From Candidatus Poribacteria bacterium (GTDB taxonomy: Bacteria > Poribacteria > WGA-4E > WGA-3G), in assembly GCA_963667805.1 (NCBI GenBank), contig OY764016.1, forward strand, positions 1,874,725-1,938,724: a DNA stretch of 64,000 nucleotides, read 5' to 3'. The position numbers were made by a program, and so were the translations under genes. This document shows positions 4,779 to 34,482 of this stretch, piece by piece (position 1 is the first letter of the stretch; each line of letters begins with the position of its first letter). Below the pieces are notes generated by a model, which saw only the letters and a program-made list of their open reading frames with translations, ran no database searches and was not told the DNA's origin.

Positions 4779-5184
4779 TGAGATACCCCTTTCGTTGAAG
4801 CTACGATTGAAATATTAGTTTTAATTTGCAAATTGTATGCCACTCCGAAAACATCGTCTTAGTCGTGGTCTAAATACGAACTTTAGAGGAAATATAGTAG
4901 ATTCTGTAATTACTTTTACACCAAACTCGGTGCGGTTAGAATGCAGATCGCATTTGGGCGAGTACGCCGCAAAACCGCACTTACCGGGGGTATACAGATA
5001 TTTTCGGACTTTACTATATTTGGAGAATACTGCACCAAATAGGGCAAGCAACAGTGGCACCTGCACGGATTTGTGCAATCACCTCGAGGCTGTATTCCTG
5101 TTATTTGCGAACATCAGTAGACCTCTTTATGATATTAATGACGCGAGTTAAGGACGAAATGGTTGCACAATTTTACAAAAGATT

Positions 5185-30047: not shown

Positions 30048-31167
30048 GTGCGTTGCCACTATTTTTATCGAAAAAATGCATCCGGTCTGGAACAAACGCG
30101 ACGTAGAGGTGCTGTCCGATTTCCGCTTCAAAGTTCGGTGCTGTGCATGCTTTAAGAATCGTGTGTGCGCCGGATGTATCCGTTCCGAGCGTCAATTCGA
30201 CGATTGTTTCTGCCCCGAGGGGTTCACTGCTATAGACTTCCGCCTGAAACGCGTTGGGAATTGGCTGATGACTCACGATAACATCTTCAGCATGCGTGCC
30301 GAAGATCAGGTCTCGGTCTGGATCGCTGTTTTTTACAACTTTAGCGATTTTGGGGTCCTGAATTGCGACTGAATTACCACCGTCGAGATGGCTCGCTAAC
30401 GTCATGAGGAGGTCGCCATTCGCGGTGGAGATGTCGCACGGGATGCAATTCATACTTGGATTCCCGATGAAACCGGCGACAAAGAGATTCGTGGGATGAT
30501 TATAGATGTCAGCAGGTGTTCCCAATTGCTGGATTCTGCCGGCTTCAAGGACGGCGATCCTGTCTGCCATTGACATCGCTTCGATCTGGTCATGCGTCAC
30601 GTAGAAGGTGGTTGTGCCGAGTTCGCGTTGCCGCCACCGGATTTCGGCGCGCATCTCGGTCCGCAGTTTCGCATCCAGATTGGAGATCGGTTCGTCCATG
30701 AGGAAGACTTGAGGACGCCGCACCATTGCGCGTCCGAGTCCAACGCGTTGTGTCTCACCGCCGCTCAACTGGTTGGGTGTTCGCAGGAGCAGGTGTTCGA
30801 TATGCAGCATTTGGGCAATATCTTTGACACGCCGGTCGATCTCTTCTTCGGAGAGTTTTCTCGGATGCAGGGGAAACGCCATATTCTCGTAAACGCTGAG
30901 GTGTGGATAGAGGATATGCGATTGGAAGACGAAAGCGACATCGCGTTCCGCGGGGGTTTTGTCGTTGACGCTCACATCGTCGAGATAGATCGTGCCTTCT
31001 TCGGGTGTGTCCAAGCCGGCGATACACCGAAGGGTCGTCGTTTTGCCGGCACCCGTTTGACCGAGGAGCACAAAGAATTCCTCGTCTCGGATATCCAAGT
31101 TGATGTCGTCAAGTGCGATGAGATCGCCGAATCGTTTTGTAATGTTTTCGAGTCGGACTGTTGCCAT
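30040..31167 (-). CDS. ABC transporter ATP-binding protein, MalK/UgpC sugar-importer type (orphan)
   Basis: Walker A GQTGAGKTT, signature LSGGETQRV, Walker B VFLMDEP, and a C-terminal TOBE-like domain. Confidence 0.85.
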   Translation of the reverse strand: MATVRLENITKRFGDLIALDDINLDIRDEEFFVLLGQTGAGKTTTLRCIAGLDTPEEGTIYLDDVSVNDKTPAERDVAFVFQSHILYPHLSVYENMAFPLHPRKLSEEEIDRRVKDIAQMLHIEHLLLRTPNQLSGGETQRVGLGRAMVRRPQVFLMDEPISNLDAKLRTEMRAEIRWRQRELGTTTFYVTHDQIEAMSMADRIAVLEAGRIQQLGTPADIYNHPTNLFVAGFIGNPSMNCIPCDISTANGDLLMTLASHLDGGNSVAIQDPKIAKVVKNSDPDRDLIFGTHAEDVIVSHQPIPNAFQAEVYSSEPLGAETIVELTLGTDTSGAHTILKACTAPNFEAEIGQHLYVAFVPDRMHFFDKNSGNALF

Positions 31168-31245
31168 AGGGAAATCTACGCTTCTGTGTTGTGGATATTG
31201 CTACAAGTGTAGCACAAATTGCGTTTAGCGGTCAACAAGAATTCT

Positions 31246-31273
31246 TTGAACGGATGTATAAATATTTTATAAT
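31246..31273 (+). promoter_or_regulatory. orphan sigma-70-like promoter (-35 TTGAAC / 16 bp / -10 TATAAT)
   Basis: Hexamers read directly; no protein-coding ORF follows. Confidence 0.45.
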
Positions 31274-31279
31274 GAATCC

Positions 31280-31553
31280 GAAAAATAAATGGACATTTTT
31301 GTAGTGTAGGAAATCGTTAGCGTGCGTCCTCCCTCCAAGGTGTTGCTTGAGAGTTTCGATTGGGATTCGCATTACCTGAGAAGTGAGTGGACGGTTTCGA
31401 CGTCTACGCCTGCTGCGCCTTCGCAGGTAAAAGGGAATATTGTTGGGACATGGGGTGAATTGAAAAAACAATAGGCAGAGATACGCCACAGATACGGCTT
31501 GAGGCGTGATAGTCGGTCGGTTTTCTACCGGATGCTATCACGCCTCTTTTTTT
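31280..31553 (+). ncRNA. candidate ~270-nt non-coding RNA or orphaned leader, delimited by promoter and strong intrinsic terminator
   Basis: No credible ORF on either strand. Internal hairpins (for example CCTGCTGCGCCTTCGCAGG). Ends in a 12-bp perfect stem GAGGCGTGATAG/CTATCACGCCTC plus T7. Confidence 0.35.
31501..31553 (+). terminator. rho-independent terminator (12-bp GC-rich stem + TTTTTTT)
   Basis: GAGGCGTGATAG...CTATCACGCCTC followed by seven T. Confidence 0.8.
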
Positions 31554-31560
31554 ATAGTAG

Positions 31561-31581
31561 ATTTTAGAATTACTTAGACAT
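31561..31581 (+). repeat. solo IS terminal-inverted-repeat-like fragment (ATTTTAGAATTACTTAGACA)
   Basis: Matches the right IR of the IS at 32500-32521 (AAAATGTAAATTACTTAGACA) in 17 of 21 positions. Confidence 0.5.
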
Positions 31582-31595
31582 TAGAGATGAAGACT

Positions 31596-31626
31596 TAACC
31601 CCCCTAACCCCCCTTATCAGGGGGGA
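31596..31626. repeat. palindromic G/C motif TAACCCCCCTAACCCCCCTTATCAGGGGGGA (copy 2)
   Basis: Near-identical to 26331-26360; contains a C5-6/G5-6 hairpin. Confidence 0.6.
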
Positions 31627-31676
31627 ATTAGCGGTCTTTCTCATGACACATTGACTTGCAAATGTCTAAGTAGTGT

Positions 31677-32279
31677 TTACATTTTTTTAGCAGTCATAAG
31701 AATGGCTGCTAAATAAACAAATCCAAGGTATCGGACTGCGTATTTATCATAGCGAGTGGCAACACGACGAAACTGTTTCAAGCGATGAAAAAAACGCTCA
31801 ATGACATTTCGAAGTTTGTAGACGCCTTTATCATAAGGGCGTTCTTCAAGGCGGTTGCGCCGCGGACGAATCACCGCAACGCCCCCTTGAGCAAGAATCT
31901 CGGCTCTCAAAGGATCCGAGTCATAGGCAGTATCGGCAACGACACAGTCAAAGGTCTGTCCGGCAATCAATGCCGAGGCTTGGCGAACATCATGACTCGC
32001 ACCTGCCGTCAAGATAAAACGCAAGGGGCGAAAGGCATCACTCACCGCAGCGTGAAGTTTCGTCGTGAATCCCCCGTGGCTCCGACCCAAAGCTTGCTTG
32101 TTTTGACCGCCATTTTTTTTTCGGGGCACCTGCTGCGGAGGTGTGTGCCCGGACGATCGTCGAATCAACGAGGAGTGCCGAGATTTCACCCGCAGCATGG
32201 AAATGTTGATGAAGTTTTTCAAAAACACCCGCATCACACCATCTTCCAAAGCGGCGATAGACGCTGTTCCAATATCCAT
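31677..32279 (-). CDS. IS5-family transposase OrfB (DDE_Tnp_1 catalytic part; expressed as OrfAB fusion)
   Basis: DDE-region motifs (VVADTAYDSD, RNVIERFFHRLKQFRRVATRYDK). The in-frame continuation from OrfA requires loss of one A in the A9 run. Confidence 0.75.
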   Translation of the reverse strand: MDIGTASIAALEDGVMRVFLKNFINISMLRVKSRHSSLIRRSSGHTPPQQVPRKKNGGQNKQALGRSHGGFTTKLHAAVSDAFRPLRFILTAGASHDVRQASALIAGQTFDCVVADTAYDSDPLRAEILAQGGVAVIRPRRNRLEERPYDKGVYKLRNVIERFFHRLKQFRRVATRYDKYAVRYLGFVYLAAILMTAKKM

Positions 32280-32475
32280 AGGCTTTTGGCAGCCCTCGCC
32301 ACGTCGCTCCTTCTTTGGTCATCCAGACCAGAGCCGAGAGAAAGCGTTTACAGGTTTCAGGATTTCCGACATAGACGTTTGGAAGGACTTTGAGAAACGG
32401 GAGTATGCTCTGCCAAGCCACATCAGAAATCATCACGGGTAGGTCTTGAGTTGGCTCTCTGTTTTTAGATGTCAT
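32038..32475 (-). CDS. IS5-family transposase OrfA (DUF4096-like N-terminal part)
   Basis: 145 aa (MTSKNREPTQDLPVMISDVAWQSILPFL...); ends just after the A9 run. Confidence 0.7.
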   Translation of the reverse strand: MTSKNREPTQDLPVMISDVAWQSILPFLKVLPNVYVGNPETCKRFLSALVWMTKEGATWRGLPKAYGYWNSVYRRFGRWCDAGVFEKLHQHFHAAGEISALLVDSTIVRAHTSAAGAPKKKWRSKQASFGSEPRGIHDETSRCGE

Positions 32476-33002
32476 AGAAAAGAGTATACTAAAACCTACT
32501 CAAAATGTAAATTACTTAGACAATGTAAACACTACCTACTTATTTATAGGATTTACCATATTTGAGATGGACATAACCGCGCGTATCAGACGACTTTTTT
32601 AAAATTATGCAACCTTTTTGCCTTTAGGTTGTATCTATATAGATAGAGAGTGTTTCTTTCTGATGCCAAAAGACGTTTTTTTTATCGAACGCACGTTGGG
32701 CAGTGTGCGAAAAACAGACCCTCATCGCGTAAAAAGTAGGCAGATATATGCCGCATCCGAGGGTTTGCCCCATATAAATGGTGATAATAGCCGATTTTGT
32801 GAAGTGGCATTGTTCTTGCATGTTAAATAAAAAAGAACCTTACAACAAGGTCCTATAGATACCGTATTCACAGGAACAGAAGATCAGACAAATTTACTAA
32901 AAAAGTGTAACTTTTTTCGCTAACTTCCGTTTAACGTTGTGTTGGACTATATATTCAATTTTTAGAGAATCTATACGAACTCTTTTAGAAAGGGGTAAAG
33001 CA

Positions 33003-33203
33003 ATGAAATCCACTAATGTCCGTAAGAACCATCCATCCCTATATGAAACCGCTGTGTGTCTCGCGATTGCGAAAGCACGTCAAGATGAATTACGCTGGGA
33101 ACTTTTTATTGATAATTTGTCCCAGATTTGCGATACATTCGCCTATCAGATTGCTGCGAAAGGCACTGCCCCTTCTAAGCAATCTAATCAATCACAGCAC
33201 TAA
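33003..33203 (+). CDS. small hypothetical protein
   Basis: 66-aa ORF with an AAAGGGG RBS and no recognisable domain. Confidence 0.25.
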   Translation: MKSTNVRKNHPSLYETAVCLAIAKARQDELRWELFIDNLSQICDTFAYQIAAKGTAPSKQSNQSQH

Positions 33204-33237
33204 CCAGTTTCTGTCCAGTAATCGGAACCTTCCTGAC

Positions 33238-34482
33238 TCAAACCGATTCTTGGAGTTTTGGATGGTTGCCAAAGATCTTCACAAGAGAGCGGACTAATTT
33301 TTCGGGATCGTGGCGGATAACGTTCATCTGAACGCCGCCTAACCATGTGCCGAATTCAGTGACGACCATATCCCGGATGAGGTCCGCCTCAATCACCTGG
33401 ATCCCCTGCGCTTCAAGGTTCTCCTGCTCACGATCATAAGAGACTTGCACTTTTGAAGCGTCTGCGACTTGCATTGTCTCAACAGACAGAGACGAAATAT
33501 CTTTCGCTAAGTTCAGCACGTCCATGAGGTGCTGCGTATCTTCATAGAGCATTGAAAGCCCTTCCTCGGAAAGTGAACGAATTCGAGTCAACTGCGAAAC
33601 CAGTTCCTTCCGAACATACTCTTGCATGATTTCCGTTGGCGCGGGTTGGTTATTCACCACGACGTAATTGAGCGGAATCTTGGCATGGTCCAAAATAGCA
33701 TTAACGTGATCCGTGACCGCATAACCATCGGTTTCACCCGGCTGTGTCATAACGTTACAGACATAGATCTTCATGGCGTCTGAACGCTGAATCGTTTCCA
33801 CGACCCCTTTGATAACCAGGTTCGGCATAATGCTGGTATAAAGGCTTCCGGGACCGATGATGATGACATCGGCGTTAATCAGGGCATCTACGGCTCCTTC
33901 ATGCGCTTGGCATTCATAGATTGCATCGGGGGAATGGTGTGTTTTTCCGTTCTCGCGGGGTTCAAAAAAGACACGCTTGATCGGCTCACGATTTTCTCGG
34001 ATAGGGATCGTAGATTCGCCGCGAACGATCTCTCCATCGGTGAGTTCGGCACACAAAACGGTATAATCCAACGTAACAGGGATAATCTGTCCACGCACTG
34101 AGAGTAATCTGGATGCCGCCTGGATGGCTTTCGGGAAGTTTCCTTCAAACTTTTCCGTCAGTGCTGTTAACAATAGATTGCCGACCGTATGTCCACCGAG
34201 TTCCCCATTGCTTGAAAAACGATATTCAAAAAGCCCTGCGAGTTCATCAGCATCGGACAATGTGAACAGGAGTCTCCGGATATCGCCCGGTGGGAGCATG
34301 TCAAACTCTTCAACGAGCCGTCCTGAACTTCCACCATCATCAGAAACGGTAACAATTGCCGCCAGACTATCCAAATCAATGAGGTGGTCTCTACCTTTCT
34401 CCAAATCAGCGTAGTGCTTAATGCCACTCAGCAACGCGGATAAACCACTCCCGCCTCCGATGCAGGCAAGCTTCAAAGCCAT
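33238..34482 (-). CDS. gluconeogenesis factor YvcK / CofD-like (UPF0052) family protein
   Basis: GGGSG...TVSDDGGSSG...LPPGDIR motifs. Confidence 0.8.
   Translation of the reverse strand: MALKLACIGGGSGLSALLSGIKHYADLEKGRDHLIDLDSLAAIVTVSDDGGSSGRLVEEFDMLPPGDIRRLLFTLSDADELAGLFEYRFSSNGELGGHTVGNLLLTALTEKFEGNFPKAIQAASRLLSVRGQIIPVTLDYTVLCAELTDGEIVRGESTIPIRENREPIKRVFFEPRENGKTHHSPDAIYECQAHEGAVDALINADVIIIGPGSLYTSIMPNLVIKGVVETIQRSDAMKIYVCNVMTQPGETDGYAVTDHVNAILDHAKIPLNYVVVNNQPAPTEIMQEYVRKELVSQLTRIRSLSEEGLSMLYEDTQHLMDVLNLAKDISSLSVETMQVADASKVQVSYDREQENLEAQGIQVIEADLIRDMVVTEFGTWLGGVQMNVIRHDPEKLVRSLVKIFGNHPKLQESV

Follow-up and report, generated by a model that had tools for sequence, protein, structure and literature searches.

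A poribacterial IS5-family insertion sequence with its transposase divided at a run of nine As, and the small repeat in which it lies

In a 64,000-nt stretch of DNA from Candidatus Poribacteria (positions 1,874,725 to 1,938,724 of contig OY764016.1, assembly GCA_963667805.1; hereafter the window), the minus strand carries an insertion sequence (IS) that its sequence marks as an intact, 868-bp member of the IS5 family. The transposase of this element is spread over two overlapping open reading frames (ORFs), OrfA and OrfB, and a run of nine As (A9) in their overlap is the sole thing that parts the one from the other. The account favoured here, which is held with rather more than even confidence, combines this anatomy with a transposase produced through slippage of RNA polymerase at the A9 run, an arrangement that would limit transposition. 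The evidence comes from the coding content of the element, from its relatives in other poribacterial genomes, and from its ends and insertion site, which lies in a small repeat resembling a miniature inverted-repeat transposable element (MITE).

The element and its divided transposase

As an earlier note on this DNA had it, OrfA and OrfB both lie on the minus strand and overlap (Table 1); the A9 run is likewise present in the overlap, although at 32113-32121 rather than at 32114-32122, where that note had placed it. Around the run the codons are GCC CCG AAA AAA AAA TGG in OrfA and CCC CGA AAA AAA AAT GGC in OrfB, which sets OrfB in the +1 frame. Removal of one A gives, in agreement with the same note, a continuous product of 265 aa with the junction GAPKKNGGQNKQALGRSHGG (...GAPKKNGGQ...), and addition of two As gives a product of 266 aa with the junction GAPKKKNGGQ. 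Translation of OrfB is expected only for the part past the run (31677-32112), within the fusion. Besides this A9 run (T9 on the plus strand), the window has no homopolymer of nine or more bases; by our estimate base composition predicts about 0.7 such runs per window, and the run by itself is therefore not significant. Its significance lies in its placement in the ORF overlap and in its conservation in about 50 homologous elements.

The fused OrfAB protein matches the NCBIfam model NF033580 (IS5 family transposase) from position 3 to position 256 of the 258 in the model, and its score of 247.8 bits exceeds the cutoff of 110. Pfam places DUF4096 at residues 16-89 (3.7e-18) and DDE_Tnp_1 at residues 97-259 (1.2e-19), and the latter domain spans the A-run, which falls near residue 118. 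Because DDE_Tnp_1 begins upstream of the run and finishes downstream of it, a complete catalytic domain is encoded by neither ORF singly; the region of the first catalytic Asp (LVDSTIVRAH) precedes the run and the remainder of the DDE domain follows it. These matches bear out the earlier assignment to the IS5 family. The further assignment to an IS427-like group is supported by the architecture of the element as compared with published descriptions of that group, namely a length of 868 bp, inverted repeats of 15 bp, a 2-bp TA duplication, two overlapping ORFs and a DDE triad that is complete only in the fusion, the nearest annotated relatives being named only 'IS5 family transposase'.

A promoter-like site (Table 1) ends 7 nt ahead of the OrfA ATG, no Shine-Dalgarno sequence is visible between them, and the arrangement TTGACA-N17-TAnaCT-N7-ATG is kept in relatives. 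From this we infer a leaderless or near-leaderless mRNA.

Table 1. Coordinates of the element, its parts and the surrounding repeat in the window
Feature	Position	Strand	Remarks
Complete IS5-family (IS427-like) IS, 868 bp	31669..32536	-	Extent from the L057 copy and 48 insertion sites of relatives
OrfA, 145 aa	32475..32038	-	DUF4096 DNA-binding part and first catalytic Asp region, then a 25-codon out-of-frame tail past the run
OrfB reading frame, 200 aa (mechanical ORF call)	32279..31677	-	+1 relative to OrfA; rest of the DDE domain
A9 run on the coding strand (plus-strand T9)	32113-32121	-	Proposed slippage site in the OrfA/OrfB overlap
Promoter-like site, TTTACA-17 nt-TATACT	32511-32483	-	Predicted; inside the region of the left inverted repeat; 10/12 matches
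Left inverted repeat (IRL), OrfA-proximal, GGTAGTGTTTACATT on the coding strand	32522..32536	-	0 mismatches; same 15-mer at the ends of nearly all related elements
Right inverted repeat (IRR), OrfB-proximal, AGTAGTGTTTACATT	31669..31683	+	14/15 against IRL; the mismatch is the outermost base
TA target-site duplication, left copy	31667..31668		L057 comparison and relatives
TA target-site duplication, right copy	32537..32538		L057 comparison and relatives
MITE-like poribacterial repeat (~138 bp, split by the IS), left and main part	31553..31668		B-type terminal repeat, core and first bases of the A-type terminal repeat
B-type terminal repeat (the 'third IR' of the earlier note)	31553-31580		2 mismatches over 28 nt to the consensus
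Core hairpin of the MITE-like repeat, CCCCCC-TTATCA-GGGGGG	31608-31625		C6/G6 stem
A-type terminal repeat, rest of the split copy, CTTATTTATAGGATTTACCATA	32539..32560		Flank comparison; first bases at 31663-31668

The A-run and both reading frames in relatives

With one genome per species scanned, 56 related loci came to light, all of them in Candidatus Poribacteria assemblies, and in the genome collection scanned the IS family seems to be confined to Poribacteria. At every related locus the A-run stands uninterrupted after GGTGCCCC, at the same codon position, and comprises 7, 8, 9, 10, 11 or 13 As. The A9 form, with OrfB at +1, is present in 8, 6 and 4 copies in three genomes, in 2 copies in one genome, and as the single copies L013, L041, L045, L050 and L057. 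OrfB is at -1 in the A10 form (6 copies in one genome), in the A7 form (6 copies in one genome, plus others) and in the one A13 copy, and it is in frame in the A8 and A11 forms, which are represented by one copy each (A11 being L001). To unite the two frames A7, A10 and A13 thus need one base more and A9 one fewer, whereas A8 and A11 need no change. Within each multi-copy set (A9 in eight, six and four copies, A10 in six and A7 in six) the copies have different flanks and TA duplications of their own, which argues that the out-of-frame forms themselves have transposed recently.

Two features of the sequence around the run accompany this variation in its length. Ahead of it, GGTGCCCC is nearly invariant in the relatives, synonymous positions included. 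After it, most relatives have CGGAGGT, which holds the Shine-Dalgarno-like GGAGGT and also codes for a conserved Gly-Gly.

In most of the 28 distinct sequences, adjustment of run length alone opens a frame of 264-267 aa. Measured against the window lineage, the ratio of nonsynonymous to synonymous divergence (dN/dS) lies between 0.12 and 0.20 in the OrfA part and between 0.11 and 0.20 in the OrfB part, with dS at about 1, values which indicate that the OrfB frame is kept under purifying selection at the protein level although it is out of frame. Moreover, the A-run is unbroken by AAG in 23/23 distinct sequence contexts despite saturated synonymous divergence, and since the lysine codons are never AAG, this points to selection acting on the homopolymer itself.

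The element of the window has a near-identical counterpart. A second assembled contig (L057) codes for the exact OrfB protein in other surroundings, and there the DNA is 99.9% identical to that of the window across 878 bp, with the similarity ending abruptly on both sides. That copy likewise has A9, in an unrelated context and in an independent assembly, and it therefore argues against a local sequencing error and fixes the ends of the element. Homopolymers are error-prone in sequencing and in-frame relatives exist, so that a dead pseudogene, or an A9 produced by a homopolymer error in what is really a single-ORF transposase gene, had to be weighed; with A9 recurring across many genomes and copies, as well as in the independent assembly and context of L057, and with strong purifying selection on both halves and frames that are otherwise intact, either is very unlikely. 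The IS is well formed and probably active.

Two loci of one genome (OZ253447), L004 and L005, have the length of in-frame forms (795 nt), a reading that was rejected when, against L029, both proved to be A9 copies with an additional loss of one base in a downstream T7 run near the conserved ERFFH motif. These copies would need a second slip for the frame; they belong to a sublineage that is defective and has spread all the same, or else they reflect a systematic error at the homopolymer.

How the two halves may be joined

On the favoured account, the promoter in the left end would drive a leaderless-type mRNA, standard decoding of which would yield OrfA alone (145 aa; the DNA-binding domain and the first catalytic Asp), a product that would be unable to transpose and is probably a regulator. 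The transposase (265 aa, with the full DDE triad) would arise only from messages that have lost one A or gained two, and the source of such messages would be slippage of RNA polymerase on the nine-base homopolymer, which would keep the level of transposase, and hence of transposition, low. Slippage is favoured because nine-base A/T runs are known to be efficient sites that are used by many IS elements, because IS1447 slips in both directions on A9, and because the multiplication of this family in both non-zero phases is simply explained by a bidirectional process. Bacterial RNA polymerase slips efficiently at stretches of 9 A/T, and IS elements form the largest group that relies on this, among them Nostoc elements with 8-10 As and no other difference (PMC1088944; PMC5009743); on the A9 of IS1447, +1 and -1 slippage each amount to about 16% (PMC6211511). 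That the OrfB frame is at +1, -1 or zero depending on run length fits a mechanism that makes both shorter and longer runs.

Several observations weigh against this account. If tRNA-Lys shifted by +1 on AAA-AAA-A, the protein would be identical; in a Burkholderia relative the A8 run is set in the canonical -1 phase, A_AAA_AAA; papers on the IS427 group assume ribosomal frameshifting (PMC3281130); no conserved RNA hairpin was found beside the run (fold z = 0.84; relatives compared); and one genome has, among six A9 copies, a single in-frame A8 copy that differs from them in the run and in a few single-nucleotide polymorphisms. The A8 copy implies that changes of length also occur at the DNA level, or else it is an assembly error.

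The first of these points belongs to a ribosomal explanation, by which the anatomy is the same and tRNA-Lys, reading an mRNA that is unedited, slips by +1 (or -2) on the A-run. Re-pairing from AAA to AAA is perfect inside the run, the GAPKKNGGQ product does not differ from that of deleting one A, and in most A9 relatives the zero-frame codons past the run are CGG AGG. Both of these codons are rare and slow in Escherichia coli. The relatives with A7 or A8 resemble classical -1 sites, and translational frameshifting is the assumption of the IS427-group literature, which has (+1) entries in ISCaa13 and ISCaa8 (PMC3196728; PMC3281130). However, the run is not followed by a stop codon, a Shine-Dalgarno-like stimulator could not be established upstream at the prfB spacing, and no conserved downstream structure was found. 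A mechanism specific to one direction hardly explains A7, A9, A10 and A13 forms, multi-copy ones included, at a single site, and nine-A runs are on record as sites where transcriptional slippage is efficient (PMC1088944, PMC6211511). The window element also differs from the -1 frameshift class of the IS3/IS1 type, with its X_XXY_YYZ heptamer in phase, in that its OrfB is at +1; the -1 phase does occur in the A7 poribacterial relatives and in the Burkholderia relative. Taken together, these points leave ribosomal slippage an unlikely source of the fusion.

RNA structure was examined around the run and across the locus. The fold of 32090-32180 is no more stable than that of shuffled sequence (z = 0.84) and shows no conserved pairing in the relatives, no dedicated covariation model having been built. 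A nascent-RNA hairpin like those of IS1447 and the Roseiflexus IS630 element was sought beside the run; a GGGCAC/GUGCCC stem that ends just ahead of it was considered as a conserved stimulator and rejected, given that z value and a 5' arm that varies in relatives without compensation. A scan of 31000-33400 against Rfam gave no match at E <= 1.

The A8 copy bears on another explanation as well, namely that A9 copies are switched off and that replication slippage to A8 or A11, in the manner of phase variation, creates in-frame copies which then transpose. Run length does vary among close relatives, there is an in-frame A11 copy (L001) as well as the A8 one, the protein database contains numerous full-length proteins that are in frame and have GAPKK(K)NGGQ, and a second homopolymer, too, differs between copies of one genome (T7 to T6). 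Yet the copies that have multiplied are the out-of-frame ones (8, 6, 6, 6 and 4), whereas transposing in-frame copies should leave mostly in-frame daughters, and IS transposases generally prefer to act in cis (PMC5009743). A switch at the level of DNA is thus judged improbable, and slippage of RNA polymerase remains the reading that is preferred.

Ends of the element and its target

Comparison with L057 and with the relatives places the element at 31669-32536. The earlier note had extended it over 31561-32540, with a left limit about 108 bp too far out, and had described a reiterated fragment of an inner inverted repeat outside the right end (32522-32539), which is really the terminal repeat IRL followed by the TA duplication. 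The true terminal repeats match at 14/15 positions; the mismatch at the outermost base of IRR is also found in L057. When the window was scanned for additional copies of the IS or for solo ends, none was found besides the two real ends, the sole other match having 3 mismatches and lying at chance level.

In the relatives, junctions read NTA-GGTAGTGTTTACATT at one end and AATGTAAACACTACC-TAN at the other (48 distinct insertion sites; multi-copy relatives in five poribacterial genomes). TA flanks the element on both sides at 45/48 of the distinct insertion sites, as it also does in the window and in L057. The target, as reconstructed, has a palindromic bias, with T at -4 (38/45), C at -1 (22/45), G or A at +1 (42/45) and A at +4 (31/45), and over the insertion sites of L001-L057 its consensus is the 10-bp T-N3-TA-N3-A, of which the central TA alone is duplicated. 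In the window the corresponding positions are 31663-31672 and 32533-32542.

Two observations concern the surroundings of particular copies. In L027 and L054 (genome OX638352) the left end has CCCTGGTG where GGTAGTG would stand and lies directly against a solo end in inverted orientation, GGTAGTGTTTACATCAGGG..., which suggests a nested or rearranged insertion at this 5' junction. About 180 bp downstream of the L057 copy there is an IS630-type element (L057:3795-4845; HTH_29 and DDE_3, two ORFs), and the surroundings of that copy appear to be an IS-rich patch.

The MITE-like repeat and its recurrent occupation

Around the window copy, the flanking sequence is similar to that beside IS copies of six other genomes (L011, L012, L014, L019, L023 and L043). 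The shared sequence of one side is ...TATAGTGAATTCTAAAAATAAG-TA; the other side has TA-GACACTTTCG..., and 60-170 bp further on comes ...GTGTCTCATTAATTCTAAAATCTACTATA. These shared flanks belong to a repeat that is MITE-like in being small and non-coding, in having terminal inverted repeats and many copies, and in including intact copies without an IS, e.g. L019:5640-5741 (~102 bp). Its ends gave 24 matches in 432 kb of poribacterial DNA and 0 in shuffled controls by fuzzy search, and both of them start with TA. When reconstructed, the window copy is 138 bp long and its terminal repeats match at 23/34 positions. By these comparisons, the IS is inserted at the TA within the A-type terminal repeat, a TA that fits the target consensus of the IS. 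In L011, L012, L014, L019, L023 and L043 the same TA of the repeat bears an IS of this family. A single ancient orthologous insertion in a shared repeat was considered and rejected, the DNA past the ~100-200-bp repeat being different every time; this difference among the seven cases argues for independent insertions at one site.

As a family, the MITE-like repeats are ~100-200 bp long, with the A-type end TATAGTGAATTCTAAAAATAAGTAGACA, the B-type end TATAGTAGATTTTAGAATTAATGAGACA and variable, hairpin-rich cores, some of which contain TTAGGGGG repeats; further copies are present in L012, L014, L023 and L043. No cognate transposase came to light for them, no search having been directed at one. 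Elsewhere in the window, another A-type end (5/28 mismatches) is found at 31268-31295, ~100 bp past the start of an ABC-transporter ATPase gene, with no partner end detected, and there is a weaker B-like match at 4893-4920. Abutting the B-type end, the segment 31501-31553 contains a perfect 12-bp inverted repeat (GAGGCGTGATAG / CTATCACGCCTC) with a 22-nt loop, followed by T7 on the plus strand. This segment looks like an intrinsic terminator, with no obvious plus-strand gene upstream of it, and it was missed by a consensus scan because its loop is long.

The repeat also settles the nature of what the earlier note had called a third IR-like 21-mer. The 21-mer exists at 31561-31581, and 31568-31580 within it is an exact 13-mer shared with the subterminal IS segment 32510-32522; it is nevertheless part of the terminal repeat of the MITE-like element, at 31553-31580. 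That note had taken it, together with 32522-32539, as relics of inverted repeats left by past insertion or excision of the IS at this spot. Besides the 13-mer, this idea could draw on the 10-mer TGTCTAAGTA, which occurs 3 times at the locus with 0 mismatches and has 7 matches in the whole window with at most 1 mismatch, as compared with 2.06 expected. However, 32522-32536 is the actual terminal repeat, 31553-31580 fits the B-type end of a repeat family with intact IS-free copies, and past the 13-mer the sequence of 31561-31581 is unlike an IS end. The pieces are accordingly a real IRL and the end of a MITE-like repeat, and that they are remnants of earlier insertion or excision here is exceedingly improbable. 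There is no similarity beyond the 13-mer itself, for which chance and a common protein-binding motif are both compatible with the data.

The sequences considered here can be brought together in a wider proposal, which is put forward tentatively and at somewhat less than even odds: that the same uninterrupted run works in every phase through bidirectional slippage of the poribacterial polymerase at useful rates, that run length may serve as an evolvable dial for transposition, and that the palindromic 10-bp target (T-N3-TA-N3-A) makes one position of the MITE-like repeat a recurrent landing site.

Significance

For annotation, the main consequence is that two ORFs of the kind labelled 'hypothetical' or 'transposase fragment' are one functional gene, in what is probably an active element and not a pseudogene. 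Repeat annotation in the genomes of sponge symbionts can draw on the corrected ends of the element, its TA duplication and target consensus, and the MITE-like repeat, and the IS family could serve as a marker of the Poribacteria lineage. The forms from A7 to A13 constitute a natural series in which the effect of run length on rates of slippage and transposition could be measured. The current understanding of IS biology is unchanged by these findings. The need to skip one A is a known self-limiting device of such elements, and publications already exist on two-ORF elements of the IS427 group, on +1 arrangements and on IS elements with A9 slippage; in the literature searched, poribacterial IS elements of this kind were not found described.

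Comparison with known systems

Among characterized elements, those of the IS427 group in Paracoccus (IS1248, ISPam4 and ISPaes1) are 832-865 bp long, with inverted repeats of 13-21 bp and a 2-bp duplication (PMC3281130). Like the poribacterial family, the group consists of small (about 800-1000 bp), multi-copy elements with two overlapping ORFs, a conserved frameshift motif and a full DDE triad in the fusion only, and the duplication is of 2 bp in most of its described members. The difference is that programmed translational frameshifting is predicted for the Paracoccus elements (PMC3281130), whereas in the window OrfB stands at +1 behind A9, the two being compared by description only. Two IS5-family elements of Amoebophilus asiaticus, ISCaa13 (IS427 group) and ISCaa8 (IS1031 group), are ~860-890 bp in length and also have two ORFs, for which a +1 shift is predicted (PMC3196728). 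Their host is, likewise, a host-associated and IS-rich bacterium, in this case a symbiont of amoebae; it belongs to another phylum, however, and no direct repeats are reported for those copies (PMC3196728).

With regard to the run itself, the nearest likeness is to IS elements that use slippage at A9 or T9 (PMC1088944; IS1447, PMC6211511). In these elements, too, A9 lies in the overlap of orfA and orfB and is conserved in homologues, run length differs among near-identical copies (8-10 As in Nostoc), and fusion needs a non-templated change of length. The poribacterial family has the features by which Baranov et al. (2005) delimited this class, i.e. a run of at least 9 A/T in the overlap, with its position and the ORF organization conserved among homologues (PMC1088944). 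IS1447 differs in belonging to the IS3 family, in the insertion of one A and in having had its slippage demonstrated, whereas the window element would lose one A or gain two.

Outside Poribacteria, a comparison can be made with an unnamed IS5-family element on a plasmid of Burkholderia multivorans (NZ_CP090750.1; L058), which has 47% identity over 95% of the fused protein. The two have in common the GxPKKNG junction, a related core of the inverted repeats (GTTTACATT) and TA flanks; the Burkholderia element differs in its proteobacterial host and in the -1 phase of its A8. The shared junction motif implies that the slippery site is an old feature of this group of IS elements.

The insertion site, finally, recalls IS elements known to have repetitive extragenic palindromes or MITEs as their targets, where a small palindromic repeat between genes is hit recurrently at the same position (PMC1525189). 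The repeat in the window differs in being a poribacterial family with terminal repeats of ~28 nt. For the poribacterial IS, the preference seems to follow the palindromic consensus T-N3-TA-N3-A rather than any demonstrated dependence on the repeat.

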